Position numbers and translations under genes: made by a program. 64,000 bases of DNA from Escherichia coli. GTDB taxonomy: Bacteria; Pseudomonadota; Gammaproteobacteria; Enterobacterales; Enterobacteriaceae. The stretch is taken from assembly GCF_048403405.1 (NCBI RefSeq), contig NZ_CP183136.1, one strand, 5' to 3'. The notes beneath the pieces were generated by a model. That model had not been told where the DNA came from and did no database searches. It worked only from the letters and a program-made list of their open reading frames with translations. Numbering within the stretch: position 1 is the stretch's first letter; each line of letters opens with the position of its first letter. Positions 1,446-32,433 of this stretch are shown piece after piece.

Positions 1446-1452
1446 ATATCTA

Positions 1453-3229: not shown

Positions 3230-3266
3230 TTTTATTCATTTATCCGTATTAATTAGAGGTAATCTT

Positions 3267-3963: not shown

Positions 3964-3984
3964 AACTGATACCAGGATTGTTAT

Positions 3985-7457: not shown

Positions 7458-7468
7458 GGAACCCTTCG

Positions 7469-7720
7469 ATGAATAAGCTGGTTTCTGATGGCAGCGTCAA
7501 AAAAATAAATTATCCGGTGCTGTATGAGTCCGGAATAACACCTCCGTTATGTGAAGTCAGTGCACCAGAACCTGATGCGGGTGGGAAACGCATTGTGGCA
7601 TATGTTTATAAATCATCACGGAGTACGGTTTTTGAAAATCCTGACATTGTAAAAACCTGTACGGTCAGGGATTTGAAGAAGGATTTTGTGAACTGCGATG
7701 AGAAAGGTGAGGGACAATGA
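7469..7720 (+). CDS. trbG: TrbG
   Basis: 83-aa ORF in conserved position between trbD and traV. Confidence 0.8.
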   Translation: MNKLVSDGSVKKINYPVLYESGITPPLCEVSAPEPDAGGKRIVAYVYKSSRSTVFENPDIVKTCTVRDLKKDFVNCDEKGEGQ

Positions 7721-8232: not shown

Positions 8233-8366
8233 CTGGCCCTGAAGTTGTATATCAGCCGGCAATGCCGGCGGGCTTTCTGTATTCAAAATCCGCCTGTAAA
8301 ACGAGTGCCCTGTGCGTGAAAAGGGATGGGCGGTAGCGTGTCAGAACATGTCGGGAGGAATATTCC

Positions 8367-8588
8367 GTGAGTGATGAAGCCGATGAAGCATATTCAGTGA
8401 CAGAACAACTGACCATGACAGGAATAAACCGGATACGCCAGAAAATAAATGCTCATGGTATTCCTGTTTATCTCTGTGAAGCATGCGGAAATCCTATTCC
8501 GGAAGCCCGGCGGAAAATATTTCCCGGTGTGACGTTGTGCGTTGAATGTCAGGCGTATCAGGAAAGACAGAGAAAACATTATGCATAA
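8367..8588 (+). CDS. traR: TraR, DksA/TraR-type zinc-finger protein
   Basis: 73-aa ORF with C4 motif CEACG...CVEC. Confidence 0.9.
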   Translation: MSDEADEAYSVTEQLTMTGINRIRQKINAHGIPVYLCEACGNPIPEARRKIFPGVTLCVECQAYQERQRKHYA

Positions 8589-8747
8589 GTCAGTCGCAGA
8601 ACATAGTGATTTAATTCCGGATGAACATGAGTGGATATTCAGAAAACAGAAATCTTTGTATATGCGCCGGGAAATGGCGCGTTAATTACAGGTATTCCCT
8701 TCATGGCTACCGCATTTCTCGCTTTATTTTTCAACTAAGGAATTCAT

Positions 8748-11375: not shown

Positions 11376-11758
11376 GTTCAACGCAGAAACCCGCCGACGT
11401 CATGGCAGAACGACGCAGCCACTGGTGGTGGACGGTGCCGGGATGCCTGGCAATGGTGTTACTGAACGCAGCCGTCAGTTACGGCATTGTCAGACTGAAC
11501 GCACCGGTGACTGTCGCCTTCAACATGAAACAGACCGTGGATGCGTTTTTTGACAGAGCCAGTCAGAAACAACTGTCAGAAGCGCAGTCAAAAGCCCTTT
11601 CAGCGCGTTTTAACACGGCACTGGAAGCCAGCCTGCAGGCGTGGCAGCAGAAACACCACGCGGTCATTCTGGTGTCGCCTGCTGTGGTACAGGGGGCACC
11701 GGATATCACCCGGGAAATCCAGCAGGATATTGCCCGGCGAATGAGGGCGGAACCATGA
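11372..11758 (+). CDS. trbI: TrbI
   Basis: 128-aa ORF overlapping the traC stop; conserved order. Confidence 0.85.
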   Translation: MSSTQKPADVMAERRSHWWWTVPGCLAMVLLNAAVSYGIVRLNAPVTVAFNMKQTVDAFFDRASQKQLSEAQSKALSARFNTALEASLQAWQQKHHAVILVSPAVVQGAPDITREIQQDIARRMRAEP

Positions 11759-12387
11759 GATGCCGGGGGCTGATTGCCCTGCTGATATGGGGGCAGAGTG
11801 TGGCCGCCGCCGATCTTGGTACCTGGGGCGATCTGTGGCCGGTAAAGGAGCCGGACATGCTGACGGTGATCATGCAGCGCCTGACGGCACTGGAGCAGTC
11901 CGGTGAGATGGGCCGGAAAATGGATGCCTTTAAGGAGCGGGTGATCCGCAACAGTCTGCGGCCCCCTGCCGTGCCCGGTATCGGACGCACGGAGAAATAC
12001 GGCAGCCGGTTGTTTGACCCGTCCGTCAGACTGGCTGCGGATATCCGGGATAACGAAGGGCGGGTGTTTGCCCGTCAGGGTGAAGTGATGAATCCGCTGC
12101 AGTATGTTCCTTTTAACCAGACGCTGTATTTCATCAATGGCGATGATCCGGCGCAGGTGGCCTGGATGAAACGCCAGACGCCGCCCACACTGGAGAGCAA
12201 AATTATCCTCGTGCAGGGCAGTATCCCGGAGATGCAGAAGTCTCTGGACAGCCGTGTTTACTTTGACCAGAACGGTGTGCTCTGCCAGCGCCTCGGCATT
12301 GATCAGGTCCCGGCACGGGTGAGCGCCGTTCCCGGCGATCGCTTCCTGAAGGTGGAATTTATTCCGGCAGAGGAGGGCAGAAAATGA
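11755..12387 (+). CDS. traW: TraW, pilus assembly protein
   Basis: ATG at 11755 within ORF 11641-12387 gives a signal peptide MRCRGLIALLIWGQSVAA. Confidence 0.85.
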   Translation: MRCRGLIALLIWGQSVAAADLGTWGDLWPVKEPDMLTVIMQRLTALEQSGEMGRKMDAFKERVIRNSLRPPAVPGIGRTEKYGSRLFDPSVRLAADIRDNEGRVFARQGEVMNPLQYVPFNQTLYFINGDDPAQVAWMKRQTPPTLESKIILVQGSIPEMQKSLDSRVYFDQNGVLCQRLGIDQVPARVSAVPGDRFLKVEFIPAEEGRK

Positions 12388-13376
12388 AGCGAAGGCTGTG
12401 GCTGCTGATGTTATTCCTTTTCGCCGGTCATGTCCCTGCGGCGTCTGCGGATTCTGCCTGTGAGGGGCGTTTTGTAAACCCGATCACAGATATCTGCTGG
12501 AGCTGTATTTTCCCGCTCTCGCTGGGCAGTATCAAAGTCAGTCAGGGGAAGGTCCCCGACACGGCGAACCCGTCGATGCCCATTCAGATTTGTCCGGCAC
12601 TGCCGCCGCTGTTCAGGCGTATCGGGCTGGCCATTGGTTACTGGGAGCCGATGGCGTTGACGGACGTCACCCGGTCACCGGGATGCATGGTGAACCTGGG
12701 CTTCAGCCTGCCGGCTTTTGGTAAAACGGCACAGGGAACGGCGAAAAAGGATGAGAAGCAGGTAAATGGGGCGTTCTATCACGTTCACTGGTACAAATAC
12801 CCGCTGACGTACTGGCTGAACATCATCACATCGCTGGGCTGTCTGGAAGGTGGTGACCTGGATATCGCTTATCTTTCTGAAATCGACCCCACCTGGACGG
12901 ACAGCAGCCTGACCACCATTCTCAATCCGGAAGCTGTCATCTTTGCCAATCCGATAGCACAGGGAGCCTGCGCAGCAGATGCGATTGCCAGCGCCTTTAA
13001 TATGCCTCTCGATGTTCTGTTCTGGTGTGCCGGTTCGCAGGGAAGTATGTACCCGTTCAATGGCTGGGTGAGTAATGAGTCCAGTCCGTTGCAGTCCTCC
13101 CTGCTGGTCAGTGAACGCATGGCGTTCAAGCTGCACCGTCAGGGCATGATTATGGAAACCATCGGGAAAAATAACGCCGTCTGTAATGAATATCCATCCC
13201 CAATCCTGCCCAAAGAACGCTGGCGTTACCAGATGGTGAATATGTACCCGGACAGCGGACAGTGCCACCCGTTCGGGCGCAGTGTGACCCGCTGGGAAAC
13301 CGGGAAAAATCCGCCCAATACAAAGAAAAACTTCGGCTACCTGATGTGGCGTAAACGTAACTGTGTCTTCCTGTGA
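12384..13376 (+). CDS. traU: TraU, pilus assembly / DNA transfer protein
   Basis: 330-aa ORF with signal peptide, conserved order. Confidence 0.9.
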   Translation: MKRRLWLLMLFLFAGHVPAASADSACEGRFVNPITDICWSCIFPLSLGSIKVSQGKVPDTANPSMPIQICPALPPLFRRIGLAIGYWEPMALTDVTRSPGCMVNLGFSLPAFGKTAQGTAKKDEKQVNGAFYHVHWYKYPLTYWLNIITSLGCLEGGDLDIAYLSEIDPTWTDSSLTTILNPEAVIFANPIAQGACAADAIASAFNMPLDVLFWCAGSQGSMYPFNGWVSNESSPLQSSLLVSERMAFKLHRQGMIMETIGKNNAVCNEYPSPILPKERWRYQMVNMYPDSGQCHPFGRSVTRWETGKNPPNTKKNFGYLMWRKRNCVFL

Positions 13377-13381
13377 GGTGA

Positions 13382-14023
13382 ATGATGAAGCTGAGTATGA
13401 AATCTCTGGCAGCACTGCTGATGATGCTGAACGGGGCGGTTATGGCGTCAGAAAACGTGAACACTCCTGAAAACCGCCAGTTCCTGAAGCAGCAGGAAAA
13501 TTTAAGCAGACAACTGCGTGAAAAACCTGACCATCAGCTGAAAGCCTGGGCGGAGAAGCAGGTGCTGGAAACCCCCCTTCAGCGTTCAGATAACCATTTC
13601 CTGGATGAGCTGGTTCGTAAACAGCAGGCTTCGCAGGACGGGAAACCCCGGCAGGGTGCCCTGTATTTTGTGTCGTTTTCCATTCCCGAAGAGGGGCTGA
13701 AACGAATGCTGGGCGAAACCCGGCACTACGGTATACCCGCCACACTGCGGGGCATGGTGAACAATGACCTGAAGACCACCGCTGAAGCCGTGCTGTCCCT
13801 GGTGAAAGACGGCGCGACTGATGGTGTTCAGATCGACCCGACGCTGTTTTCACAGTACGGCATTCGCAGTGTACCGGCACTGGTGGTGTTCTGCAGTCAG
13901 GGATACGACATCATCCGGGGAAACCTGCGGGTCGGCCAGGCGCTGGAGAAAGTGGCCGCCACGGGTGACTGCCGGCAGGTGGCTCATGATTTACTGGCAG
14001 GGAAAGGAGATTCCGGGAAATGA
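13382..14023 (+). CDS. trbC: TrbC, pilus assembly protein
   Basis: 213-aa ORF with signal peptide, conserved order. Confidence 0.85.
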   Translation: MMKLSMKSLAALLMMLNGAVMASENVNTPENRQFLKQQENLSRQLREKPDHQLKAWAEKQVLETPLQRSDNHFLDELVRKQQASQDGKPRQGALYFVSFSIPEEGLKRMLGETRHYGIPATLRGMVNNDLKTTAEAVLSLVKDGATDGVQIDPTLFSQYGIRSVPALVVFCSQGYDIIRGNLRVGQALEKVAATGDCRQVAHDLLAGKGDSGK

Positions 14024-15828
14024 AACGTATTTTACCTCTGATACTGGCTCTGGTTGCCGGCATGGCACAGGCTGACAGCAACAGTGATTACCGGGCCGGC
14101 TCTGATTTTGCTCACCAGATCAAAGGGCAGGGAAGCAGCAGTATTCAGGGCTTTAAGCCACAGGAGAGTATCCCCGGCTATAACGCGAATCCGGACGAGA
14201 CAAAATATTACGGTGGCGTGACTGCCGGCGGGGATGGCGGCCTGAAAAATGACGGCACCACGGAATGGGCGACCGGTGAAACCGGAAAAACCATCACAGA
14301 GTCATTCATGAACAAGCCGAAAGACATTCTTTCACCGGATGCACCGTTTATCCAGACCGGCAGGGATGTGGTGAACCGGGCTGACAGCATTGTGGGAAAC
14401 ACCGGGCAGCAGTGCAGTGCGCAGGAGATTAGCCGGAGTGAATACACGAATTACACCTGTGAGAGGGATTTACAGGTGGAGCAGTACTGCACACGAACTG
14501 CCCGTATGGAGCTGCAGGGGAGTACCACATGGGAAACCCGGACGCTGGAGTATGAAATGAGTCAGCTACCTGCACGTGAAGTGAATGGTCAGTATGTTGT
14601 CTCCATTACCTCTCCCGTTACCGGTGAAATTGTCGATGCGCATTACAGCTGGAGTCGTACTTACCTGCAGAAGAGTGTACCTATGACAATTACAGTACTG
14701 GGAACCCCACTGAGCTGGAATGCCAAATACTCAGCAGATGCCTCATTTACACCAGTACAGAAAACACTGACTGCCGGTGTTGCTTTTACGTCATCTCACC
14801 CCGTCCGGGTCGGGAATACAAAATTCAAACGTCATACGGCAATGAAGCTGCGTCTGGTTGTCAGGGTAAAAAAAGCCTCGTACACCCCGTATGTTGTCTG
14901 GTCTGAAAGCTGCCCGTTCAGCAAGGAGCTGGGGAAACTGACAAAAACAGAATGTACGGAGGCTGGCGGGAACAGGACGCTGGTGAAAGACGGTCAGTCA
15001 TACAGCATGTACCAGAGCTGCTGGGCATACCGGGACACGTATGTCACGCAGTCAGCAGACAAGGGAACCTGTCAGACCTACACCGACAATCCTGCCTGTA
15101 CCCTGGTGTCACACCAGTGTGCCTTTTACTCCGAAGAAGGTGCCTGTCTGCATGAATATGCCACGTACTCCTGTGAGTCAAAAACATCCGGGAAAGTGAT
15201 GGTCTGTGGGGGAGACGTCTTCTGTCTCGATGGCGAATGCGATAAGGCTCAGAGCGGGCAGAGTAATGATTTTGCCGAAGCCGTTTCTCAGCTGGCGGCA
15301 CTGGCCGCAGCAGGTAAGGATGTTGCGGCGCTGAACGGGGTGGATGTCCGTGCTTTCACCGGTCAGGCGAAATTTTGTAAGAAGGCTGCAGCCGGATACA
15401 GCAACTGCTGTAAGGACAGCGGCTGGGGACAGGATATCGGGCTGGCCAAATGCAGCAGTGATGAAAAGGCCCTGGCTAAAGCAAAATCAAACAAACTGAC
15501 CGTCAGCGTCGGGGAGTTCTGTTCGAAGAAAGTGCTGGGTGTCTGTCTGGAGAAAAAACGCAGCTACTGTCAGTTTGATTCGAAGCTGGCGCAGATAGTC
15601 CAGCAGCAGGGGCGCAACGGTCAGTTGCGTATCAGTTTTGGTAGTGCGAAGCATCCTGACTGTCGGGGGATTACGGTTGATGAGCTGCAGAAAATTCAGT
15701 TCAACAGACTGGATTTCACTAACTTCTACGAAGACCTGATGAATAACCAGAAAATCCCGGACAGTGGCGTTCTGACGCAGAAAGTGAAAGAGCAGATTGC
15801 TGACCAGCTGAAACAGGCAGGACAGTAA
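14020..15828 (+). CDS. traN: TraN, cysteine-rich outer-membrane mating-pair stabilisation protein
   Basis: 602-aa ORF with signal peptide and many Cys in the C-terminal half. Confidence 0.95.
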   Translation: MKRILPLILALVAGMAQADSNSDYRAGSDFAHQIKGQGSSSIQGFKPQESIPGYNANPDETKYYGGVTAGGDGGLKNDGTTEWATGETGKTITESFMNKPKDILSPDAPFIQTGRDVVNRADSIVGNTGQQCSAQEISRSEYTNYTCERDLQVEQYCTRTARMELQGSTTWETRTLEYEMSQLPAREVNGQYVVSITSPVTGEIVDAHYSWSRTYLQKSVPMTITVLGTPLSWNAKYSADASFTPVQKTLTAGVAFTSSHPVRVGNTKFKRHTAMKLRLVVRVKKASYTPYVVWSESCPFSKELGKLTKTECTEAGGNRTLVKDGQSYSMYQSCWAYRDTYVTQSADKGTCQTYTDNPACTLVSHQCAFYSEEGACLHEYATYSCESKTSGKVMVCGGDVFCLDGECDKAQSGQSNDFAEAVSQLAALAAAGKDVAALNGVDVRAFTGQAKFCKKAAAGYSNCCKDSGWGQDIGLAKCSSDEKALAKAKSNKLTVSVGEFCSKKVLGVCLEKKRSYCQFDSKLAQIVQQQGRNGQLRISFGSAKHPDCRGITVDELQKIQFNRLDFTNFYEDLMNNQKIPDSGVLTQKVKEQIADQLKQAGQ

Positions 15829-15851
15829 GGTATGGGAAATAACCGGGGGAA

Positions 15852-16112
15852 ATGATGAAAGTCATATTCACGTCGAACCGTTTTATTGATTTTCTTATCC
15901 GGCTTTTGATTACAGCGATTGTCATTTCTCTGGTAATTATCTGGTCGTGGGATACGGTAAAAGAAACCACGGCAGACGGGATGCTTGCCGCTGCTTTCGT
16001 TATCCTTTACTCCGGTGTGCTCCTGTTTATTCTGTATTTTTGTTTTTCTGCCCTGACTGACCTGCAGAAACCTGATGAAAGAAAAAGTGATGAAAGGAAT
16101 GAAGATGAATAA
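15852..16112 (+). CDS. trbE: TrbE
   Basis: 86-aa small membrane protein in conserved position. Confidence 0.8.
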   Translation: MMKVIFTSNRFIDFLIRLLITAIVISLVIIWSWDTVKETTADGMLAAAFVILYSGVLLFILYFCFSALTDLQKPDERKSDERNEDE

Positions 16113-16848
16113 AGCATTACTGCCACTGTTACTCTGCTGCTTTATTTTTCCGGCGTCAGGAAAAGATGCAGGCTGGCAGTGGTATAACGAGAAAATAAAT
16201 CCGAAGGAAAAAGAAAATAAACCTGTACCTGCAGCCCCCCGTCAGGAACCGGATATTATGCAGAAACTGGCCGCACTGCAGACGGCAACAAAGCGGGCGC
16301 TGTACGAAGCCATTCTGTATCCCGGCGTGGATAATTTTGTGAAATATTTCCGGCTGCAAAATTACTGGACTCAGCAGGCCGGGCTTTTCACCATGAGCGC
16401 CAGAAAGGCCATGCTGGCACATCCTGAACTGGACTATAACCTGCAGTACAGCCATTACAACGGCACGGTACGGAACCAGCTGGCAGCAGACCAGGCGCAG
16501 CAGCGACAGGCCATTGCGAAACTGGCTGAACACTACGGCATCATGTTTTTTTACCGGGGGCAGGACCCCATCGACGGGCAGCTGGCGCAGGTCATTAATG
16601 GCTTCCGGGATACCTATGGTCTGAGTGTTATTCCCGTTTCCGTGGATGGCGTGATTAATCCGCTGTTGCCGGATTCCCGGACTGACCAGGGGCAGGCGCA
16701 GCGCCTCGGCGTGAAATATTTCCCGGCCATGATGCTGGTTGACCCGAAACAGGGTAGTGTTCGTCCGTTATCATACGGTTTTATTTCGCAGGACGACCTG
16801 GCAAAACAGTTCCTGAATGTCTCTGAGGATTTTAAACCGAATTTTTAA
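16105..16848 (+). CDS. traF: TraF, thioredoxin-fold pilus assembly protein
   Basis: ATG at 16105 within ORF 16075-16848 gives a 247-aa protein with signal peptide MNKALLPLLLCCF. Confidence 0.9.
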   Translation: MNKALLPLLLCCFIFPASGKDAGWQWYNEKINPKEKENKPVPAAPRQEPDIMQKLAALQTATKRALYEAILYPGVDNFVKYFRLQNYWTQQAGLFTMSARKAMLAHPELDYNLQYSHYNGTVRNQLAADQAQQRQAIAKLAEHYGIMFFYRGQDPIDGQLAQVINGFRDTYGLSVIPVSVDGVINPLLPDSRTDQGQAQRLGVKYFPAMMLVDPKQGSVRPLSYGFISQDDLAKQFLNVSEDFKPNF

Positions 16849-16861
16849 CCAAAGGATATAT

Positions 16862-17203
16862 ATGCATACAGGGGATTTGTGTTTTTTTACAGGTGCCAGC
16901 CTGTTTATCGTGGGGGTTGTTGGTTATTTCTTTACAGGACTAAATAATAAAGGAGTTTATCTACTGAGCTCGTTTGTCTTCTTTGTAGTAAATGTCATAA
17001 GTGTATGTATGCTGCCAGATAATTTCTTGTTTCTTTGTGGTGCGGTTATGAATCAGTGTGCCGTACCGGTTGTTTCAATGGCAGTCAGCACCATGCCGAT
17101 TATCACGAAGTTTGACAGTTTCAGAAGGATGTTTATTTGTATTATGTTGTCAGCCATATGGTCTGGAGTGATGTGGTTTTTTATTATTTCATTAGTGAAA
17201 TGA
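16862..17203 (+). CDS. trbA: TrbA, small membrane protein
   Basis: ATG at 16862 (MHTGDLCFF...) within ORF 16817-17203; hydrophobic. Confidence 0.75.
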   Translation: MHTGDLCFFTGASLFIVGVVGYFFTGLNNKGVYLLSSFVFFVVNVISVCMLPDNFLFLCGAVMNQCAVPVVSMAVSTMPIITKFDSFRRMFICIMLSAIWSGVMWFFIISLVK

Positions 17204-17519
17204 CTGGTGCTAATTTGTCATAAATGCCAAATCCAATAGTGAGGTTGATTACCACAGACCAGAGGATAAACCAGACTGCTATCCAGTGACTTCTGAATAA
17301 ATCACAAAAATAAACATAGATGATTAGAAATAGCCATATCACAACAGCGATAATTGCTATAAATAACAGTATCGTCACAAATAAATCAGCAAAGGTTTTA
17401 ATGGGGAGAGTGTGCAATAATGAATACACCAGTAAAGCAAAAGCCGCATTACCTGATAATGACTCTCTTATGATGTTTCTCACTATTTCCAGTTTTTCTT
17501 TAAAAGATCGCTTTTCCAT
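17184..17519 (-). CDS. artA: ArtA-like antisense ORF
   Basis: 111-aa hydrophobic ORF on the opposite strand between trbA and traQ, as in F; expression not inferable. Confidence 0.45.
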   Translation of the reverse strand: MEKRSFKEKLEIVRNIIRESLSGNAAFALLVYSLLHTLPIKTFADLFVTILLFIAIIAVVIWLFLIIYVYFCDLFRSHWIAVWFILWSVVINLTIGFGIYDKLAPVISLMK

Positions 17520-17599
17520 TTGTACCTCTGACTAATATCACACAAACGCGAATATTACAGACATGAATACTCTCATGTAAATAATAACCGGAGTTTAAC

Positions 17600-17884
17600 A
17601 TGATAAGTAAACGCAGATTCTCTTTACCCCGGCTTGATATTACGGGAATGTGGGTATTTTCCCTGGGCGTCTGGTTTCATATCGTCGCCCGTCTTGTTCA
17701 CAGCAAACCCTGGATGGCTTTTTTTCTGGCGGAGCTGATTGCGGCCATCCTTGTGCTGTTCGGCGCATACCAGGTGCTGGATGCATGGATTGCCCGTGTC
17801 AGCCGGGAAGAGCGTGAGGCACTGGAAGCCAGGCAACAGGCCATGATGGCAGAGCAGCAGGAGGGCGGACATGTCTCTCACTAA
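17600..17884 (+). CDS. traQ: TraQ, pilin chaperone
   Basis: 94-aa membrane protein in conserved position. Confidence 0.9.
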   Translation: MISKRRFSLPRLDITGMWVFSLGVWFHIVARLVHSKPWMAFFLAELIAAILVLFGAYQVLDAWIARVSREEREALEARQQAMMAEQQEGGHVSH

Positions 17885-18425
17885 ATTACTGCCGGTTATT
17901 CTGTTGATGATGGCCACAGGTGTGCAGGCCTCCACCCGGGATGAAATTGAACGACTCTGGCATCCGCAGGGTATGGCTGCGCAGCCTGCACAACCGGCAG
18001 CAGACACGCCAGCCAGGACAGACAAGACAGAAAAGCCGGCTCCCCGCTGGTTCCGCCTCAGCAACGGCAGGCAGGTTAACCTGGCCGACTGGAAGGTGGT
18101 GCTGTTTATGCAGGGGCATTGCCCTTACTGTCACCAGTTTGACCCGGTACTGAAGCAGCTGGCACAGCAGTACGGCTTTTCCGTTTTTCCCTACACTCTG
18201 GATGGTCAGGGGGATATGGCCTTTCCGGAAGCATTACCGGTGCCACCGGACGTGATGCAGACCTTCTTCCCGAATATCCCGGTGGCCACACCGACCACCT
18301 TCCTGGTCAACGTCAACACGCTTGAGGCATTACCGCTTTTACAGGGGGCAACGGATGCCGCCGGTTTTATGGCGCGGATGGATACCGTTCTGCAGATGTA
18401 CGGAGGGAAAAAAGGTGCGAAATAA
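17871..18425 (+). CDS. trbB: TrbB, periplasmic thioredoxin-like disulfide isomerase
   Basis: Signal peptide and CPYC active-site motif. Confidence 0.9.
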   Translation: MSLTKLLPVILLMMATGVQASTRDEIERLWHPQGMAAQPAQPAADTPARTDKTEKPAPRWFRLSNGRQVNLADWKVVLFMQGHCPYCHQFDPVLKQLAQQYGFSVFPYTLDGQGDMAFPEALPVPPDVMQTFFPNIPVATPTTFLVNVNTLEALPLLQGATDAAGFMARMDTVLQMYGGKKGAK

Positions 18426-18729
18426 GCAGGTGGTGTTACTCATTGCCGGAATATCCGGCATCGCGACGGGAATAATCGTCAGCCTGAATATTCCCTTTAT
18501 CCGTCAGGGGCTTTTTTATCCCGCCAGTCCTGTAGAAATAGTCGTTTCGCTGTGTCTTACCTTTTCTGTTTCTGTTGTGTTTTTTGTGGGGGCAATTGTG
18601 GGATGGATTTCGGTGTCTGAAATATATTACAGCCGCATGACCGGTCTGAATGAATCATCAGTAATATCAGAGGAAACTTATAATGACAAAAAACAAAAAG
18701 AATCAGGAATTCAAAATCAGAAAAATTAG
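18415..18729 (+). CDS. trbJ: TrbJ
   Basis: GTG at 18415 within ORF 18322-18729 gives MRNKQVVLLIAG..., a small membrane protein. Confidence 0.7.
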   Translation: MRNKQVVLLIAGISGIATGIIVSLNIPFIRQGLFYPASPVEIVVSLCLTFSVSVVFFVGAIVGWISVSEIYYSRMTGLNESSVISEETYNDKKQKESGIQNQKN

Positions 18730-19075
18730 ACGGAATATTGAGTATAGTTTCAGAGGTTCTGACAGATATTTTTATTTGTTTATTGTTTTCCTTGTTGCCG
18801 GAATTGTTTTATGGGCTGTTATGCACGTTATTTTCGATGTCTGTATTGATTCGTGGATGGCCGACCCGAAATTACTTAATTTCCAGTATATGTGGAATGT
18901 TCTGATGAAAGTCATTCCGTTTACGTTATGGGCGCTGGCAGCAAGGTTTCTTGTTACATTTTTTCTGTCCCCAATGTGCGAATTAATATTCGGAAATATC
19001 ATGATATTCCTGCTGAAACGCCGTATGCGCCGGGAGAACACATTAAGGGAGGGCAAGAATGATGCCACGCATTAA
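18683..19075 (+). CDS. trbF: TrbF
   Basis: 130-aa membrane protein in conserved position. Confidence 0.8.
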   Translation: MTKNKKNQEFKIRKIRRNIEYSFRGSDRYFYLFIVFLVAGIVLWAVMHVIFDVCIDSWMADPKLLNFQYMWNVLMKVIPFTLWALAARFLVTFFLSPMCELIFGNIMIFLLKRRMRRENTLREGKNDATH

Positions 19076-20448
19076 ACCTCTTCTGGTTCTTTGTGCTGCT
19101 TTACTGACGGTCACACCCGCAGCGTCAGCGGATGTGAACAGCGACATGAATCAGTTCTTTAACAAGCTGGGCTTCGCCTCCAATACCACCCAGCCGGGCG
19201 TCTGGCAGGGGCAGGCCGCCGGCTATGCTTACGGTGGCTCCCTGTATGCCCGTACTCAGGTTAAAAATGTTCATCTGATTTCCATGACGCTGCCGGATAT
19301 CAATGCCGGATGTGGCGGCATCGACGCCTATCTCGGCTCGTTCAGCTTTATTAATAGCGAGCAGTTGCAGCGTTTTGTTAAGCAGATTATGAGCAATGCT
19401 GCCGGTTACTTCTTTGACCTTGCCCTGCAGACAACGGTGCCGGAAATCAAAACCGCAAAAGACTTCCTGCAGAAAATGGCAAGCGACATTAACAGTATGA
19501 ACCTCAGTTCCTGCCAGGCGGCACAGGGGATTATCGGCGGGCTTTTCCCCCGGACGCAGGTGTCCCAGCAGAAAGTCTGTCAGGACATTGCCGGTGAGAG
19601 CAATATTTTTGCTGACTGGGCTGCTTCCCGGCAGGGATGTACCGTTGGCGGGAAATCTCGACAGCGTCAGGGATAAAGCCAGCGACAAGGATAAGGAGCG
19701 GGTGACCGAAAAACATCAACATCATGTGGAATGCGCTTTCCAAAAACAGAATGTTTGACGGCAACAAAGAGCTGAAAGAGTTTGTGATGACGCTGACCGG
19801 CTCACTGGTGTTTGGTCCCAGACGGCGAAATCACACCGCTATCGGCGCAGAACCACTGACCGCTCATATTATCCGGGCCATGATGGAAGGCGGTACAGCA
19901 AAAATTTATCACTGCAACGATTCTGACAAATGCCTGAAAGTGGTGGCAGACACACCGGTGACCATCAGCCCGGGATAATGCACTGAAGTCTCAGATTACT
20001 AAACTTCTGGCCAGCATTCAGAACAAGGCTGTCAGTGACACGCCTCTGGATGACAAGGAAAAAGGCTTTATTTCCAGTACCACCATCCCCGTCTTCAAAT
20101 ACCTGGTTGACCCGCAGATGCTCGGTGTTTCCAACAGTATGATTTACCAGCTGACGGACTATATCGGTTACGACATCCTGCTGCAGTACATTCAGGAGCT
20201 GATACAGCAGGCCCGGGCGATGGTGGCCACCGGGAAATTATCGACGAAGCAGTTATCGAACAGTATTAACTGGACAATATGAATGATGCCACCGCGGCAG
20301 ATTGCGGCGTTTCCAGTCACAGGTACAGGTGCAGCAGGATGCGCTGCTGGTCGTCGACCGTCAGATGAGCTACATGCGTCAGCAGCTTTCCGCCCGCATG
20401 CTCAGTCGTTACCAGAACAACTATCACTTCGGAGGGAGCACGCTGTGA
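19059..20448 (+). pseudogene. traH: traH (pilus assembly), frame-disrupted
   Basis: ORF 19059-19676 matches the TraH N-terminal part with signal peptide; later TraH-like segments are in other frames (for example ORF 19724-19978); stop at 20446-20448. Confidence 0.75.
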
Positions 20449-23217
20449 ATGAAGTTTATGTGATTGCCGGTGGTGAATGGTTGCGGAATAACCTGAACGC
20501 CATTGCCGCCTTTATGGGAACCAGGACGTGGGATTCCATTGAAAAAATTGCTCTCACCCTGTCTGTTGTTGCGGTGGCCTTTATGTGGGTACAGCGGCAC
20601 AACGTGATGGATTTGCTGGGCTGGGCGGCGGTGTTTGTGCTTATCAGCCTGCTGGTTAATATCCGTACGTCGGTGCAGATTATTGATAACAGTGACCTGG
20701 TCAAAGTCCATCGGGTGGATAATGTGCCGGTCGGACTGGCGATGCCACTTTCACTGACGACCCGTATCGGGCATGCAATGGTGGCCAGTTACGAGATGAT
20801 CTACACGCAACCGGACAGTTTCACCTACAGCAAAACGGGGATGCTGTTTGGCGCAGAACCTGGTATGCAAAAAGCACCGACTTTTTGTCCCGCAATCCGG
20901 AAATCGCCAATCTTTTTCAGGATTATGTGCAGAACTGTGTGATGGGGGATATTTACCTGAACCACAAATACACGCTGGAGGAGCTGATGGCCTCCGCTGA
21001 TCCCTACACGCTGATTTTTTCCCGCCCCAGTCCGCTGCGGGGCGTTTATGACAGCAATAATAATTTCGTGACCTGTAAGGACGCGTCGGTTTCGCTGAAA
21101 GACAAGCTGAATCTGGACACACAGACGTGGCGGCAAAACCTGGCATTATTATGTGCAGCAGATATTTGGCGGTCAGCCCGGATCCGGACCTGTTATTCAG
21201 TGCAACTGGTTGAGTGACAGTTACCGTTATTTCTACGGCTCCAGCCAGTCTGCCAGTCAGATCATGCGCCAGAACGTCACCATGAATGCGCTGAAGGAGG
21301 GTATCACCAGTTATGCAGCCCGTAACGGTGACTACCGCCAGCCTGGTGAATCTGGCCACCACGTCATCGATGGAGAAGCAACGTCTGGCACATGTCTCCA
21401 TTGGTCATGTGGCTGATGCGAAACACTGCCGATGGCGCAGACCATTCTGGTGGGCATTACCATCGGTATTTTCCCGCTCCTGGTACTGGCGGCTGTCTTC
21501 AACAAACTGACGCTGTCTGTTCTGAGAGGCTATGTGTTTGCCCTGATGTGGTTGCAGTCATGGCCAATGTTGTATGCCATTCTGAACAGCGCCATGACAT
21601 TTTATGCGAAGCAGAATGGTGCACCGGTGGTGCTCTCGGAAATTTCACAGATACAGCTGAAATACTCCGATCTGGCTTCCACTGCCGGGTATCTTTCCAT
21701 GATGATACCCGCCATTATCCTGGATGATGGTCAGAGGCCTTGGCGCCGGTTTTTCCAGCGTGTACAGCCATTTCGCTTCCTCTGCTATCAGCCCGACTGC
21801 CAGTGCGGCAGGCAGTGTGGTTGACGGTAATTACTCCTACGGCAACATGCAGACGGAAAACGTGAACGGCTTCAGCTGGAGCACCAACAGCACCACGTCG
21901 TTTGGTCAGATGATGTACCAGACCGGCAGTGGCGCAACTGCCACACAGACCCGTGACGGTAATATGGTGATGGATGCAAGCGGAGCGATGTCCCGTTTAC
22001 CGGTTGGTATCAATGCAACGCGTCAGATTGCAGCGGCACAACAGGAAATGGCCCGGGAGGCGTCGAACAGAGCAGAAAGCGCCCTGCATGGTTTCAGCAG
22101 CAGTATTGCCAGTGCCTGGAACACGCTCAGTCAGTTTGGTTCTAACCGGGGGAGCAGTGATTCTGTCACCGGTGGCGCTGACAGCACCATGAGTGCACAG
22201 GACTCCATGATGGCCAGCCGTATGCGCAGTGCAGTGGAAAGCTATGCGAAGGCGCATAATATCAGTAATGAGCAGGCGACTCAGGAACTGGCATCAACAG
22301 GTTCTAGGTTCTCGTCTGGCGGAATGTATGCAGATGCTCATGCTGAATGGGGGATTAAACCTGAAATTCTTGGTGTTGGTGGTGGGGTTGGTGTCAGAGG
22401 CGGGTTTAAGGGAAGTCTTGGATGCGAACGGATGATGACTCACATTCTGCAAGTAGTGGCAGCAGAGCTACCCATGATGCTCGCCATGATATTGACGCTA
22501 AAGCCAGTACAGGACTTTAAAGAAGCCAGCGATTACTTTACCAGTCGCAAGGTCAGTGAGTCCGGCAGCCATACTGACAATAATGCTGACTCCCGGGTGG
22601 ACCAGTTGTCTGCAGCCCTGAACTCAGCGAAACAGAGTTACGACCAATACACGACGAATATGACCCGCAGCCATGAATATGCGGAAATGGCCTCCCGTAC
22701 TGAAAGCATGAGCGGGCAGATGAGTGAAGACCTGTCGCAACAGTTTGCACAGTATGTGATGAAACGCGCACCGCAGGATGCAGAAGCTATTCTGACAAAT
22801 ACCAGTTCGCCGGAGATTGCAGAACGTCGTCGGGCGATGGCATGGTCTTTTGTGCAGGAACAGGTACAGCCTGGTGTTGATAATGCCTGGCGGGAATCCC
22901 GTGGCGATATTGGTAAAGGAATGGAGAGCGTACCTTCGGGTGGTGGCAGTCAGGATATTATTGCTGACCATCAGGGACATCAGGCCATTATTGAGCAAAG
23001 AACGCAGAACAGTAATATCCGTAATGATGTAAAACATCAGGTTGATAATATGGTCACAGAATATCGTGGCAATATCGGAGATACTCAGAACAGTATCCGT
23101 GGCGAGGAAAATATTGTAAGACGGGCAGTATTCTGAACTGCAAAATCATCATAAAACAGGAGGCATTATCTACAGAATAATAAATATAATGAAGAGCAAG
23201 AAACGTCAGAAGATTAA
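20445..23217 (+). pseudogene. traG: traG (mating-pair stabilisation / entry exclusion), frame-disrupted in several places
   Basis: GTG at 20445 (MNEVYVIAGG...); TraG-like translation is split over ORFs 20283-20942, 20885-21217, 21153-21416, 21432-21824 and 21724-23136; 3' end approximate. Confidence 0.75.
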
Positions 23218-23290
23218 TACCTGACGCCATCAGAAGAGGCTGTGAAAACAGATGGTGGATGATAAGAAGGATACGACTGAAGGGGCCATT

Positions 23291-23699
23291 ATGATCACTC
23301 ACTATGATATAAAAACGGAGACACAGAAACTAAAGGATGTACTCTCTGTAGAGGGAGTTAATATTCCGCCATTATTACAAGTCATAAAGCCAGGGAACTG
23401 TATGTGTTTTTATGGGTTTTATTATGGCCAACTTTTCTGCGTTTAGCTATCAGTTAAAAGTTGATGTCCGGGATGCTGGCTTTGATATATGTGCTAGTGG
23501 CATGATGGGGTTCCTCCTTTTTGTGGCCATTACAAATGGAATGATGTTATACCTTGCGATTCCTGATAGTTTCAGAAATGAGTCGAAAATAATAACTTTT
23601 ATGTATGATAAGAACAAAACTTATATCTTGTCGTTTGTGATTGTTTTTTCTATGGTTTCCTTTGCTGCATACGTATCTTATTTGGGTTTTTGCATCTAA
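23291..23699 (+). pseudogene. traS: traS (entry exclusion), frame-disrupted
   Basis: ATG at 23291 (MITHYDIK...); hydrophobic translation is split between ORFs 23252-23446 and 23412-23699. Confidence 0.55.
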
Positions 23700-23824
23700 T
23701 GATTACTATTCGTAATTATTTCTCTTGGTGTATACCATAGATATAAATCGTTATAATCTCTCTGCAATAGTCTCAGTAATAGGTCTGTTCAAAAAAGAGT
23801 CTGTTAGTTAAAAGGATATTCTGG

Positions 23825-24820: not shown

Positions 24821-27155
24821 ATGAGTTTTAACGCAAAGGATATGACCCAGGGCGGTCAGATTGCGTCCATGCGTATCCGCATGTTCAGCCAGATCGCCAA
24901 TATCATGCTTTACTGCCTGTTTATTTTTTTCTGGATACTCGTTGGTCTGGTTTTATGGGTAAAAATAAGCTGGCAGACGTTTGTGAACGGCTGTATTTAC
25001 TGGTGGTGTACCACGCTGGAAGGCATGCGGGATTTAATCAAGTCCCAGCCGGTATATGAGATCCAGTATTACGGCAAAACCTTCCGGATGAACGCTGCTC
25101 AGGTACTGCATGATAAATATATGATTTGGTGCGGAGAGCAGCTATGGTCCGCATTCGTTCTGGCCACAGTTGTGGCACTGGTTATTTGCCTGATTACCTT
25201 CTTTGTTGTCTCCTGGATTCTGGGGCGTCAGGGTAAACAACAGAGCGAAAATGAAGTCACAGGTGGTCGTCAGCTGACAGACAATCCGAAAGACGTTGCC
25301 CGGATGCTGAAAAAAGACGGCAAGGACTCCGATATCCGGATTGGCGACCTGCCGATTATCCGGGATTCCGAAATCCAGAACTTCTGTCTGCACGGCACGG
25401 TCGGGGCCGGTAAGTCGGAGGTTATCCGTCGTCTGGCCAACTACGCCCGTCAGCGCGGTGATATGGTGGTGATTTATGACCGTTCAGGGGAATTTGTTAA
25501 AAGTTACTATGATCCCTCCATCGATAAAATCCTGAATCCGCTGGATGCCCGCTGTGCCGCATGGGATTTGTGGAAGGAGTGCCTGACACAGCCGGATTTT
25601 GATAATACCGCAAATACTCTGATCCCGATGGGTACAAAAGAGGACCCGTTCTGGCAGGGTTCAGGACGTACCATTTTTGCGGAAGCGGCGTACCTGATGC
25701 GTAATGACCCCAACCGCAGCTACAGCAAACTGGTGGACACACTGCTTTCCATCAAAATCGAAAAACTGCGTACCTTCCTGCGTAATTCACCGGCGGCCAA
25801 CCTGGTGGAAGAGAAAATCGAGAAAACGGCGATTTCCATCCGTGCTGTGCTGACCAACTACGTGAAAGCCATCCGTTACCTGCAGGGGATTGAGCATAAC
25901 GGTGAGCCCTTCACCATCCGTGACTGGATGCGTGGTGTCCGGGAAGATCAGAAAAACGGCTGGCTGTTTATCTCATCGAACGCCGACACCCATGCCTCCC
26001 TGAAGCCGGTGATCTCCATGTGGCTGTCCATTGCCATTCGTGGTCTGCTGGCAATGGGAGAAAACCGTAAACGTCGTGTGTGGTTTTTCTGTGACGAGTT
26101 ACCCACGTTACACAAACTGCCGGATCTGGTGGAGATCCTGCCGGAAGCCCGTAAGTTCGGTGGCTGTTATGTGTTTGGTATCCAGTCCTATGCCCAGCTG
26201 GAAGATATCTACGGTGAGAAAGCGGCGGCCACGCTGTTTGACGTCATGAACACCCGTGCTTTTTTCCGTTCTCCCGAGCCATAAGATTGCAGAGTTCGCT
26301 GCCGGTGAGATTGGTGAGAAAGAGCACCTGAAAGCCAGCGAGCAGTATTCCTACGGTGCTGATCCGGTACGTGACGGGGTATCGACCGGTAAGGATATGG
26401 AGCGTCAGACGCTGGTCAGTTATTCCGACATTCAGTCTCTGCCGGATCTGACCTGCTATGTCACTCTGCCCGGACCGTATCCGGCAGTAAAACTCTCTCT
26501 GAAATATCAGGCACGACCGAAGGTCGCTCCGGAGTTTATTCCGCGTGACATCAACCCGGAAATGGAGAACCGTCTGAGTGCCGTACTTGCCGCAAGGGAA
26601 GCAGAAGGTCGTCAGATGGCCAGCCTCTTCGAACCGGAGGTTGCCTCCGGAGAAGATGTGACTCAGGCTGAACAGCCACAACAGCCACAACAGCCACAAC
26701 AGCCACAACAGCCACAACAGTCACAACAGCCACAACAGCCACAACAGCCACAACAGCCACAACAGCCACAACAGCCACAACAGCCACAACAGCCACAACA
26801 GCCACAACAGCCACAACAGCCACAACAGCCACAACAGCCACAACAGCCACAACAGCCACAACAGCCACAACAGCCAGTGTCTCCTGCCATCAACGATAAG
26901 AAGTCAGATGCAGGTGTGAGTGTTCCGGCAGGGGGGATCGAGCAGGAGCTGAAAATGAAACCGGAAGAAGAGATGGAACAGCAACTGCCACCCGGGATCA
27001 GTGAATCCGGTGAAGTGGTGGATATGGCCGCTTATGAGGCATGGCAACAGGAAAATCATCCGGACACCCAGCAGCAGATGCAGCGTCGTGAAGAGGTGAA
27101 CATTAATGTGCACCGGGAGCGCGGGGAGGATGTTGAGCCGGGAGATGATTTCTGA
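24821..27155 (+). pseudogene. traD: traD (coupling protein), frameshifted near 26275 as sequenced
   Basis: ORF 24821-26284 has Walker A GTVGAGKS and ends [11 protein letters not shown]; the TraD C-terminal region with the QQP repeat continues in another frame (ORF 26256-27155). Confidence 0.85.
26673..26870 (+). repeat. Tandem 9-bp repeat (CAGCCACAA, about 22 units) encoding the TraD QQP tract
   Basis: Repeat units read directly; one variant unit CAGTCACAA. Confidence 0.9.
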
Positions 27156-30100
27156 TGTTGAGTTTCAGCGTTGGTTAAATCGGCAGGCAGTGCCGGAAAC
27201 TATTACACCGACAAGGATAATTACTATGTGCTGGGCAGCATGGGAGAACGCTGGGCTGGTCAGGGGGGCTGAACAGCTTGGGACTGCAGGGCAGCGTCGA
27301 TAAGGATGTTTTTACCCGTCTTCTGGAGGGCAGGCTGCCGGACGGAGCGGATTTAAGCCGCATGCAGGATGGCAGTAATAAGCATCGTCCCGGCTACGAC
27401 CTGACCTTCTCCGCCCCCAAAAGTGTCTCCATGATGGCCATGCTCGGGGGCGATAAACGCCTGATTGATGCACATAACCAGGCCGTGGATTTTGCTGTCC
27501 GTCAGGTGGAGGCGCTGGCTTCCACACGGGTGATGACGGACGGACAGTCAGAAACGGTGCTGACCGGTAATCTGGTGATGGCACTGTTTAACCATGACAC
27601 CAGTCGCGATCAGGACCCACAGTTACACACGCATGTAGTGGTGGCTAATGTCACGCAGCATAACGGCGAGTGGAAGACACTGAGCAGTGACAAAGTGGGG
27701 AAAACCGGATTTATCCGAGAACGTGCTACGCGAACCGGATTGCGTTCGGGAAGATCTATCAGAGTGAGTTACTGTCAGCGCAGGTTGAGGCGCTGGGTTA
27801 TGAAACCGAAGTGGTCGGTAAGCACGGTATGTGGGAGATGCCGGGCGTACCGGTGGAGGCCTTTTCCAGTCGTTCACAGGCTATCAGGGAGGCCGTCGGT
27901 GAAGACGCCTCGCTGAAATCCCGGGATGTGGCGGCACTGGATACGCGAAAATCCAAACAGCACGTCGATCCGGAAATCAGAATGGCTGAATGGATGCAGA
28001 CGCTGAAGGAAACCGGGTTCGACATCCGGGCATATCGTGACGCGGCGGATCAGCGTGCGGAGACCCGCACGCAGGCGCCCGGGGCTGTTTCACAGGAGGG
28101 GCCGGATGTGCAGCAGGCGGTGACACAGGCCATTGCCGGATTAAGTGAACGAAAAGTGCAGTTTACGTACACGGACGTGCTGGCCAGAACGGTCGGTATA
28201 CTGCCGCCGGAAAATGGTGTGATTGAACGGGCACGCGCCGGTATCGATGAGGCCATCAGTCGTGAGCAGCTTATCCCCCTCGACCGTGAGAAGGGGCTGT
28301 TCACATCAGGAATTCATGTGCTCGATGAGCTGTCCGTCCGGGCACTCAGTCGTGACATCATGAAACAGAACCGGGTGACCGTACATCCGGAGAAAAGTGT
28401 CCCCCGGACGGCTGGTTACAGCGATGCGGTCAGTGTTCTGGCACAGGACCGTCCGTCGCTGGCCATTGTGTCCGGGCAGGGCGGTGCAGCCGGGCAGCGT
28501 GAGCGGGTGGCTGAACTGGTCATGATGGCCCGGGAGCAGGGGCGGGAGGTGCAGATTATCGCTGCTGACCGTCGCTCGCAGATGAACCTGAAGCAGGATG
28601 AACGGCTGTCCGGTGAGCTGATAACCGGACGTCGTCAGCTGCAGGAGGGCATGGTCTTCACGCCGGGCAGTACTGTTATCGTCGACCAGGGCGAAAAACT
28701 CTCCCTGAAAGAGACGTTAACCCTGCTGGACGGTGCCGCACGTCATAACGTACAGGTCCTGATAACCGACAGCGGGCAGCGAACCGGTACAGGCAGTGCG
28801 CTGATGGCCATGAAGGATGCCGGGGTGAACACGTATCGCTGGCAGGGCGGAGAACAGCGACCGGCAACCATCATCAGTGAACCGGACCGGAATGTCCGCT
28901 ATGACCGGCTGGCCGGAGATTTTGCGGCCAGCGTGAAAGCCGGAGAAGAGAGCGTGGCACAGGTCAGCGGGGTACGGGAACAGGCCATACTGACACAGGC
29001 CATTCGCAGTGAGCTGAAAACACAGGGCGTGCTCGGACACCCGGAGGTGACCATGACCGCCCTGTCACCGGTCTGGCTGGACAGCCGGAGCCGTTATCTG
29101 CGGGATATGTACCGACCGGGGATGGTGATGGAGCAGTGGAACCCGGAGACACGCAGTCATGACCGCTATGTTATCGACCGGGTGACGGCGCAGAGTCACA
29201 GCCTGACCCTGCGGGATGCGCAGGGCGAAACGCAGGTGGTGCGTATTTCCTCCCTGGACAGCAGCTGGTCGCTGTTCCGGCCGGAAAAAATGCCGGTGGC
29301 AGACGGCGAGCGACTGAGGGTGACAGGGAAAATTCCCGGACTCCGCGTCTCCGGCGGTGACCGCCTGCAGGTGGCATCCGTCAGTGAAGATGCGATGACG
29401 GTTGTTGTGCCGGGGCGGGCTGAACCGGCCACCCTGCCTGTGGCTGATTCACCGTTCACGGCACTGAAGCTGGAGAACGGCTGGGTGGAAACGCCCGGGC
29501 ATTCCGTCAGTGACAGTGCGACGGTGTTTGCCTCCGTCACACAGATGGCAATGGACAACGCCACCCTGAACGGTCTGGCCCGCAGCGGTCGTGATGTCCG
29601 GCTGTATTCCTCACTGGATGAAACCCGTACTGCGGAAAAACTTGCCCGCCATCCCTCCTTTACGGTGGTTTCTGAGCAGATAAAGGCGCGGGCCGGTGAG
29701 ACATCGCTGGAAACCGCTATCAGTCTGCAGAAAACCGGGCTGCACACGCCGGCACAGCAGGCCATTCATCTGGCCCTTCCTGTGCTGGAAAGTAAAAACC
29801 TGGCCTTCAGCATGGTGGACCTGCTGACAGAGGCGAAGTCGTTTGCTGCAGAAGGAACCGGTTTTACTGAACTGGGAGGGGAAATCAATGCGCAGATAAA
29901 ACGCGGTGACTTACTGTATGTGGATGTGGCAAAAGGCTATGGCACAGGCCTGCTGGTTTCTCGTGCGTCGTATGAGGCAGAAAAAAGTATTCTTCGCCAT
30001 ATTCTCGAAGGTAAGGAGGCGGTCACGCCGCTGATGGAGAGAGTACCCGGCGAACTCATGGAGACGTTAACGTCGGGACAGCGTGCCGCCACCCGTATGA

Positions 30101-32433
30101 TACTGGAAACGTCCGACCGTTTCACGGTGGTACAGGGTTATGCCGGTGTGGGTAAGACCACACAGTTCCGGGCGGTGATGTCAGCCGTGAACATGCTGCC
30201 GGCGAGTGAGCGTCCCCGAGTTGTGGGGCTGGGGCCCACGCACCGTGCGGTCGGTGAGATGCGCAGCGCCGGCGTGGATGCACAGACGCTGGCGTCCTTT
30301 CTGCATGACACGCAGCTGCAGCAGCGCAGCGGAGAAACGCCGGATTTCAGCAACACGCTGTTCCTGCTCGATGAGAGCTCAATGGTGGGCAATACCGACA
30401 TGGCACGGGCATACGCCCTGATTGCGGCCGGTGGCGGTCGTGCCGTGGCCAGTGGTGACACGGACCAGCTGCAGGCCATCGCGCCCGGTCAGCCTTTCCG
30501 TCTCCAGCAGACGCGCAGTGCTGCCGATGTGGTCATCATGAAGGAGATTGTGCGTCAGACGCCGGAACTGCGGGAGGCGGTATACAGCCTGATTAACCGG
30601 GATGTGGAAAAGGCACTGTCCGGGCTTGAGAGTGTGAAACCGTCTCAGGTGCCACGTCTGGAGGGCGCATGGGCACCGGAGCACTCCGTGACGGAGTTCA
30701 GTCACAGCCAGGAAGCGAAACTGGCAGAAGCGCAGCAGAAGGCGATGCTGAAAGGTGAGACTTTTCCGGATGTCCCCATGACACTGTATGAAGCCATTGT
30801 CCGCGACTATACCGGCAGGACACCGGAAGCACGGGAGCAGACGCTGATTGTCACGCACCTGAATGAGGACCGGCGCGTACTGAACAGCATGATTCATGAT
30901 GCACGGGAAAAGGCCGGTGAGCTGGGGCAGGAGCAGGTCATGGTGCCTGTCCTGAACACAGCGAATATACGTGACGGGGAGCTGCGTCGTCTCTCCACCT
31001 GGGAGAATAACCCGGATGCCCTTGCCCTGGTGGATAGTGTGTATCACCGGATTGCCGGTATCAGCAAGGATGACGGGCTGATAACCCTGGAGGATGCGGA
31101 AGGTAACACGCGGCTGATTTCGCCCCGGGAGGCGGTGGCTGAAGGTGTCACACTGTACACCCCGGACAAAATCCGGGTGGGGACCGGCGACCGGATGCGC
31201 TTCACGAAGAGTGACCGGGAGCGCGGTTATGTGGCCAACAGCGTCTGGACGGTGACAGCGGTTTCCGGTGACAGTGTCACGCTGTCAGACGGACAGCAGA
31301 CCCGGGTGATTCGCCCCGGCCAGGAGCGGGCAGAGCAACATATTGACCTGGCTTATGCCATCACCGCCCACGGTGCGCAGGGGGCGAGTGAAACCTTTGC
31401 CATCGCGCTTGAAGGCACGGAAGGTAACCGGAAACTGATGGCCGGCTTTGAGTCAGCCTACGTGGCCCTGTCGCGTATGAAGCAGCATGTGCAGGTGTAC
31501 ACCGATAACCGTCAGGGCTGGACGGATGCCATTAACAATGCCGTACAGAAAGGAACTGCCCACGATGTGCTGGAGCCGAAACCGGACCGGGAGGTCATGA
31601 ATGCGCAGCGGCTGTTCAGTACGGCACGGGAACTGCGGGACGTGGCGGCAGGCCGTGCCGTTCTCCGTCAGGCAGGGCTGGCCGGGGGAGACAGCCCTGC
31701 ACGGTTTATTGCACCGGGACGTAAATATCCGCAGCCGTATGTGGCACTGCCGGCGTTTGACCGTAACGGCAAGTCAGCTGGTATCTGGCTGAACCCACTG
31801 ACCACGGATGACGGAAACGGGCTGCGGGGATTCAGTGGTGAAGGACGGGTGAAAGGCAGCGGGGATGCGCAGTTCGTGGCCCTGCAGGGCAGCCGTAACG
31901 GAGAGAGCCTGCTGGCTGATAATATGCAGGATGGCGTCCGGATTGCCCGTGATAATCCTGACAGCGGTGTGGTGGTGAGAATTGCCGGTGAAGGTCGTCC
32001 GTGGAATCCCGGTGCCATCACCGGTGGCCGCGTGTGGGGGGATATCCCGGATAACAGCGTCCAGCCGGGGGCCGGAAATGGCGAACCGGTCACGGCAGAG
32101 GTACTGGCACAGCGGCAGGCTGAAGAGGCCATCCGCCGTGAAACGGAACGCCGCGCAGATGAAATTGTCAGGAAAATGGCAGAGAACAAACCTGACTTGC
32201 CGGACGGCAAAACAGAGCTGGCTGTCAGGGATATTGCCGGGCAGGAACGTGACCGGACTGCCACTTCTGAACGGGAAACCGCACTGCCGGAGAGTGTGCT
32301 GCGTGAATCACAACGGGAGCGGGAAGCGGTCCGGGAGGTTGCCCGGGAAAATCTGCTGCAGGAGCGTCTGCAGCAGATGGAGCGGGATATGGTTCGTGAC
32401 CTGCAGAAAGAGAAAACCCTGGGCGGAGACTGA
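27155..32433 (+). pseudogene. traI: traI (relaxase-helicase), N-terminal roughly 650 nt frame-disrupted; remainder intact
   Basis: ATG at 27155 overlaps the traD stop but hits TAA after 7 codons; relaxase-domain residues are spread over three frames (ORFs 27106-27303, 27278-27916); ORF 27811-32433 (1540 aa) has helicase motif GYAGVGKT. Confidence 0.85.

Follow-up and report, generated by a model that had tools for sequence, protein, structure and literature searches.

Frameshifted traD and traI in an F-like Escherichia coli plasmid record: probable consensus errors from two co-assembled tra alleles

The sequence considered here is a stretch of 64,000 nucleotides (the window) from contig NZ_CP183136.1 of the Escherichia coli RefSeq assembly GCF_048403405.1. 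It comprises nearly an entire F-like plasmid, with the tra operon on the plus strand from about 1.4 to 33 kb. As deposited, frameshifts break traD, predicted to encode the coupling protein, and traI, predicted to encode the relaxase-helicase with an R100-type N-terminus. Has this plasmid lost its transfer functions, or is the written sequence at fault? We consider it very likely that the frameshifts are errors of the deposited consensus, produced by co-assembly of two F-like tra alleles, and that they are not mutations of the plasmid. The damage consists of insertions only; it is patchy and unique to this record, its extra bases derive from a second allele, and it preserves codon structure. 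A consensus built from mixed templates would be its cause. Most likely the frameshifts do not reflect real biology and the actual plasmid encodes a TraD of 777 amino acids and a TraI of 1756 amino acids that nicks oriT in the manner of R100 or F.

traD and traI as written

The two genes, with their open reading frames (ORFs), are laid out in the window as follows.

24821..26284, plus strand: 5' portion of traD, an ORF of 487 amino acids with a premature TAA at 26282-26284
26272..26276, plus strand: the single extra base of traD, placed by pairwise and three-way alignments and positive in the 5-mer test described below
26274..27155, plus strand: 3' portion of traD in the +1 frame, ending in TGA at 27153-27155 (ORF 26256..27155; homology 26274-27152)
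26671..26876, plus strand: Gln-Gln-Pro tandem repeat of the TraD C-terminal region, a 9-nucleotide unit present about 22-23 times and read in the frame of the 3' portion
27155..27178, plus strand: traI start, with ATG, seven codons and TAA at 27176-27178
27168..27269, plus strand: traI relaxase fragment with the catalytic-tyrosine segment GNYYTDKDNYY, frame 3 (tblastn, corrected translation)
27284..27712, plus strand: traI relaxase fragment with the histidine motif HDTSRDQDPQLHTH, frame 2 (NCBIfam)
27713..27783, plus strand: second cluster of traI extra bases, five in number (27713, 27729, 27773, 27782-83), from alignments
27784..32433, plus strand: remainder of traI in a single frame, with the end of the relaxase domain, the helicase and the C-terminus (start given by the ORF finder, GTG at 27811)

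The first-pass annotation had noticed a shift of frame in traD near 26275, and the alignments bear this out: one extra base lies at 26272-26276, and the rest of the gene continues in the +1 frame. It is the only frame-breaking difference between this traD and the intact genes of CP088434 or NZ_CP103646, and its position is 26272 (T) with one reference allele and 26276 (G) with the other. At this site the window reads TTCTCCCGAGCC, CP088434 reads TTCCCCG-AGCC and NZ_CP103646 reads TTCTCCC-AGCC, the bases of both alleles being present in the window. By tblastn the 5' portion matches TraD residues 1-485 with 99.6% identity, and it scores 699.8 bits with the NCBIfam model TIGR02759 TraD_Ftype (cut-off 521). 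The 3' portion corresponds to TraD residues 485-729 in frame 3 (tblastn), covering profile positions 485-646 of PRK13700 and 474-566 of TIGR02759. When one base is deleted, the corrected translation yields the TraD of 777 amino acids. The gene also differs in length from that of CP088434 by 54 nucleotides, equal to six additional in-frame Gln-Gln-Pro units. This repeat, in which one unit is a variant (CAACAGTCA), has 22.9 copies according to Tandem Repeats Finder, and a comparison gives 22 units in the window versus 5-16 in five relatives; its length could be natural variation or inflation by assembly.

The start of traI overlaps the stop of traD as TGATG. Direct reading of the opening (ATG TTG AGT TTC AGC GTT GGT TAA, that is, M L S F S V G stop) agrees with the earlier description of a stop after seven codons from 27155. 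The alignments, tblastn and the ORF list likewise agree with its account of a relaxase domain spread over three frames ahead of the ORF of 1540 amino acids that begins at 27811, and its identification of both genes is correct (tblastn, NCBIfam). Over traD-traI the window is 99.1% identical to the intact CP088434, and all frame-breaking differences are extra bases in the window. Those in traI lie at 27173 (a G, relative to R100-type traI), 27263, 27283, 27713, 27729, 27773 and 27782-83, with no deletions. Eight extra bases thus cut the gene into nine segments with frames running 2/3/1/2/3/1/2/3/1, and tblastn places the TraI pieces in frames 3, 2 and 1. All eight fall within 611 of the 5279 nucleotides of the gene (probability about 3e-7 if uniformly placed), and downstream of 27783 there are no insertions or deletions (indels) relative to related sequences.

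The intact pieces retain strong family signals. The piece at 27284-27712 scores 217.7 bits with TIGR02686 relax_trwC (cut-off 145.5) and 177 bits with MobF (cut-off 100), and ORF 27811..32433 scores 3551 bits with PRK14712 (cut-off 2486). TraI has both the whole-protein score of its family (NCBIfam PRK14712 / PRK13709 / TIGR02760; MOBF) and the N-terminal TrwC/MobF relaxase domain, and the gene identities are also backed by the annotation of near-identical records. As sequenced, no continuous ORF runs through relaxase and helicase; it is regained once the extra bases are removed. Of the 1756 residues of the corrected TraI, 10 differ from those of CP088434 TraI; the tyrosine pair (GNYYTDKDNYY) and the HxDxxxxHxH histidine motif are both present. 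With TraI (MOBF12) and TraD of R100 and F the window shares the genes, their order and the TGATG overlap, and its intact pieces pass the NCBIfam equivalog models; it differs in that its frames break nine times as written. Both genes look like ordinary members of the F/R100 TraD and TraI families, and the one feature of these families that they lack, as written, is a continuous ORF.

Insertions across the tra region

The traD-traI damage is part of a pattern that extends over the window. Compared with intact relatives, the window carries approximately 115 extra bases and at most one deletion in the tra patches (sign test, 1e-33). These are distributed in three patches around a clean core.

547..3591, plus strand: patch 1, from gene X/oriT to traA, breaking traJ (5 insertions, 0 deletions), traY (9 insertions, 0 deletions) and traA (5 insertions, 0 deletions)
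3652..19072, plus strand: clean tra core, traL to trbF, all proteins 100.0% identical to those of NZ_CP103646, with 0 indels and 0 substitutions
19659..23714, plus strand: patch 2, breaking traH (13 insertions, 0 deletions), traG (24 insertions, 0 deletions) and traS (11 insertions, 0 deletions)
26272..27783, plus strand: patch 3, traD-traI, with 1 insertion and 0 deletions in traD and 8 insertions and 0 deletions in traI

A further group of insertions was found in the traT-traD spacer by comparison with NZ_CP103646. By tblastn, traJ, traA, traH, traG, traS, traD and traI are each split across two or three frames. Apart from the extra bases, three of the genes hardly differ from their relatives: traJ and traY have no substitutions relative to NZ_CP103646, traH has 13 insertions and one substitution, and the three together have 27 insertions and at most one substitution. 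Removal of the extra bases restores full-length genes without a real internal stop. An apparent stop inside the corrected traG depended on which base was removed at an ambiguous insertion, and dropping an A from the following A-run gives an open frame. The remaining substitutions are biased to the third codon position (25/14/111 over the three positions in traG, 4/6/21 in traI), which is the pattern of functional genes, and none creates a stop codon in the corrected tra genes. Outside tra, 30 kb of genes are in single frames relative to NZ_CP069456 with two exceptions, a deletion of 1 nucleotide in a small regulator gene and an insertion sequence (IS) in mcbB.

The first-pass annotation had concluded that the relaxase should be inactive, so that the plasmid could not nick its own oriT. 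It had seen one patch of a window-wide pattern, and the conclusion is unsupported, as the same insertion-only damage affects traJ, traY, traA, traH, traG and traS. The changes are insertions only, codon structure is intact, the extra bases are those of a second allele, and 15.4 kb of neighbouring sequence is clean, which is the mark of a consensus or assembly artefact rather than of decaying genes. Genuine pseudogenisation, with real tra frameshifts, loss of conjugation, a dead relaxase and mobility only with a helper, is very unlikely in our judgement. The frameshifts are present in the sequence as given, the plasmid has one clearly real disruption (the IS in mcbB), and tra-defective F-like plasmids exist. 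Decay, however, gives deletions, nonsense and missense changes over a whole dispensable operon, whereas here there are 115 insertions against at most one deletion, 13 insertions against one substitution in traH, no stops derived from substitutions, a substitution pattern of purifying selection and a core of 15.4 kb with zero changes. The mixed indels, relaxed substitutions, nonsense changes and operon-wide decay of a decaying pseudogene are not what we found. In naturally transfer-defective F-like plasmids the usual changes are deletions, insertions of IS elements and truncations. Such a state would give the lack of self-transfer that the first-pass annotation predicted, but these plasmids do not carry dozens of +1 insertions in otherwise identical genes, and the one real IS event of the window looks quite unlike its tra damage. 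Moreover, the inserted bases copy a second allele, which is unlike any known mutational process.

Generic low-quality sequence would also produce patches of error. Here the patches would be of low coverage or from single reads (uncorrected long reads, poor Sanger gap closure), with random insertions and no second allele involved. The patchiness, the insertion-only bias and the uniqueness to this record all fit insertion-prone raw reads as well, as do the traG and traS sites that lack a second-allele signal. Such sequence should, however, contain deletions and substitutions too, and traJ, traY and traH have 27 insertions with at most one substitution; nor would random errors match a second allele at 41 of the 57 tested sites, where about 4 are expected. 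We regard this explanation as unlikely. Homopolymer errors of the 454, Ion Torrent or nanopore style were rejected because only 12 of the 115 insertions lengthen a stretch of at least two identical bases.

Source of the extra bases

In three-way alignments, the window holds the bases of both major allele types at the traD and traI sites. One traI site reads CTTGGG-CTG in the R100 type, CTGGGA-CTG in the F type and CTTGGGACTG in the window; a second reads GTGCTA-GCG, GTG-TACGCT and GTGCTACGCG, respectively; and in the second cluster the R100 type has CGC--GTTGAG, the F type GAGCAGGTTGAG and the window CGCAGGTTGAG. Site-by-site alignments show the same retention of both alleles' bases in traH and in the oriT-traM region. 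This was quantified with a 5-mer test, in which the window-specific 5-mer spanning each extra base was sought at the homologous place in a second allele, that of NZ_CP069456 (R100/pMccB17-type tra). The null distribution came from 1000 simulations of random insertions. The results by segment were as follows.

Gene X to traM: 14 of 17 sites positive (null mean 0.8, null maximum 4)
traY to traA: 16 of 19 sites positive (null mean 1.4, null maximum 6)
traH: 7 of 13 sites positive (null mean 1.2, null maximum 5)
traI N-terminus: 4 of 8 sites positive (null mean 0.4, null maximum 3)

With the four segments pooled, 41 of the 57 tested sites are positive against approximately 4 expected, and a stricter adjacent-column test gave results in the same direction. 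From position 437 to 1240 the sequence changes from one allele type to the other at intervals of 10-40 bp. Within this interval lies the nic region of oriT:

1114..1139, minus strand: oriT nic region, with transferred strand GCGTAGGGTGT/GGTGC (for comparison, F type GCGTGGGGTGT and R100 type GCGTAGTGTGT, to which it is intermediate)

The slash marks the nic position, which we take to be that of the F and R100 literature. The variant is a hybrid of F-type sequence (GTGGGGTGT) and R100-type sequence (GTAGTGTGT), and may likewise have arisen through the mixed consensus. Over the full query of 65 nucleotides it is matched exactly by one of 4,078 plasmid records, CP042642.1. That record was of no use as a clean twin of the window, having only 44 annotated features in 77 kb and many tra genes unannotated.

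The extra bases are peculiar to this record. The traI insertions were not found in 4,246 plasmid matches nor in 3,249 E. coli RefSeq matches, where the best identities were 98.1-98.3%, and every matching record lacks at least seven of the eight extra bases. Errors that sit where two alleles differ, carry the base of the other allele and are absent from independent sequences are what a mixed-allele artefact leaves behind. Consensus errors at variant sites are a known class of artefact when two haplotypes or collapsed repeat copies are co-assembled. The window resembles that class in its insertion-only errors, their position at allele-difference sites, the retention of both bases, the switching at fine scale and the clean stretches of a single allele; it departs from that class in the confinement of mixing to three patches.

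The process might have run as follows. In three tra patches, data from two different tra alleles would have gone into the consensus. One of these alleles dominates it; the other would be of R100/pMccB17 type or F type and would come from a co-resident F-like plasmid or from a mixed template. Where neighbouring substitutions can be aligned as a pair of gaps, the bases of both alleles would be kept, giving a +1 insertion at each such site. The insertion-only bias would arise because both bases are kept at gap-pair sites. A mixed-allele consensus would also account for the second-allele origin of the extra bases and for their location in the most divergent stretches (for traI these are 27155-27310 and 27700-27790, the conserved middle being free of insertions), and error-free sequence would be expected wherever only one allele contributed.

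Net +1 frameshifts could also come from real recombination, if crossovers between two homeologous tra alleles fell between compensating indels; each insertion does lie where the alleles differ, and the allele types plainly form a mosaic in the window. Recombination should give -1 as often as +1, whereas the observed ratio is 115:1 or better. It would need well over 100 crossovers, many of them no more than 10 nucleotides apart, while flanking sequence stays of one allele (traH), and the same junctions occur in none of the 4,246 records; we give it next to no credence. The extra bases might also be real: in a cell with two homeologous F-like plasmids, some novel recombination or repair process would resolve mismatches in heteroduplexes by keeping the bases of both strands, so that templated +1 insertions would silence conjugation and the relaxase; this we hold to be extremely improbable. 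Programmed frameshifting cannot credibly explain nine shifts within one gene together with about 100 elsewhere.

Several observations weigh against a mixed-allele consensus. The evidence consists of the deposited consensus sequence. Mixing must have been confined to patches, which this explanation does not account for; the clean core at 3.6-19.6 kb differs by 1-11% from the second allele and yet shows no insertions. In traI, four of the eight sites are negative in the strict 5-mer test, and a second-allele signal was not found in traG (1 of 24 sites) or traS (0 of 11), for which a suitable second allele was not in hand. An exact 43-mer spanning two of the traI insertions had 0 matches in genome, viral and metagenome contig collections, and the truncated TraD of 487 amino acids is not on record.

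Simpler forms of mixing were also considered. A 50:50 mixture of the NZ_CP103646 and NZ_CP069456 alleles across all of tra was rejected, the core at 3.6-19.6 kb being purely of NZ_CP103646 type. A pure mosaic of references was rejected for traG-traS, where 101 sites between 22617 and 24739 differ from both references; between 21700 and 23294, 51 sites match none of three references. Here the window has an allele of its own, with a third-position-biased pattern.

The plasmid and the meaning of the record

Downstream of the tra operon lie finO, an IncFII repA, the operon for microcin B17, parMR and the leading region. These loci belong to a backbone (about 28-64 kb) that is collinear with, and 97-100% identical to, plasmids of the pMccB17/NZ_CP069456 type. 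The plasmid is best explained, from its sequence, as an F-like, MOBF, IncFII plasmid of pMccB17 type with an ordinary traD-traI pair. This likeness to pMccB17 (ON989342) and to the IncFII microcin B17 plasmids of NZ_CP069456 type is one of backbone: the tra allele of pMccB17 differs from the tra core of the window, which is the NZ_CP103646 allele, and pMccB17 is without an IS, whereas the mcbB of the window carries one. The published description of pMccB17 reports no IS and intact tra genes, and the plasmid of the window is not described there (PMC10912980).

The plasmid is mosaic also on a larger scale. The tra core at 3.6-19.6 kb is identical to that of NZ_CP103646, an IncFIA/FIB/FII plasmid of 187 kb; traM of the NZ_CP069456/pMccB17 type adjoins an NZ_CP103646-type traJ; at its N-terminus traI is of R100 type; and the backbone is of pMccB17 type. 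A tra core of NZ_CP103646 type within a pMccB17-type backbone may be a chimeric assembly join or a natural recombinant. Outside the tra patches, single-base deletions relative to NZ_CP069456 lie at 34995, 38845 and 38925-38926, and the high-identity backbone shows no other differences of the deletion type. That at 34995 splits a small regulator gene of the ANR family over two frames; the others are downstream of repA.

Within the microcin B17 operon, mcbB is interrupted at 46075-47131 by an element of 1057 bp of the IS5 family, similar to IS903B, with terminal inverted repeats of approximately 33 nucleotides and a target duplication of 9 bp (AAATGTAGG, at 46066-46074 and 47132-47140). It looks like a genuine insertion, and should abolish microcin B17 maturation. 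The mcbB::IS junction is common to no PLSDB record. In the leading region, a run of CTGCTA hexamers of 30 nucleotides (59059-59088) is absent from NZ_CP069456. Two copies of about 290 nucleotides, at 50314-50603 and 51646-51908, flank a DUF1281 gene and encode similar small hypothetical proteins; one reference protein matches both by tblastn.

The reading of the tra frameshifts has consequences for how this plasmid is classified. Taken literally, they would have a microcin B17 plasmid annotated as non-conjugative, with relaxase and coupling protein dead, and in mobility-typing surveys it would be classed as mobilizable or non-mobilizable. On the evidence, such an annotation would be an error inherited from a flawed consensus, and the eight tra genes of the record are best treated as unreliable. 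Insertion-only differences whose extra base matches another allele provide a test for this kind of artefact that can be reused on other records.

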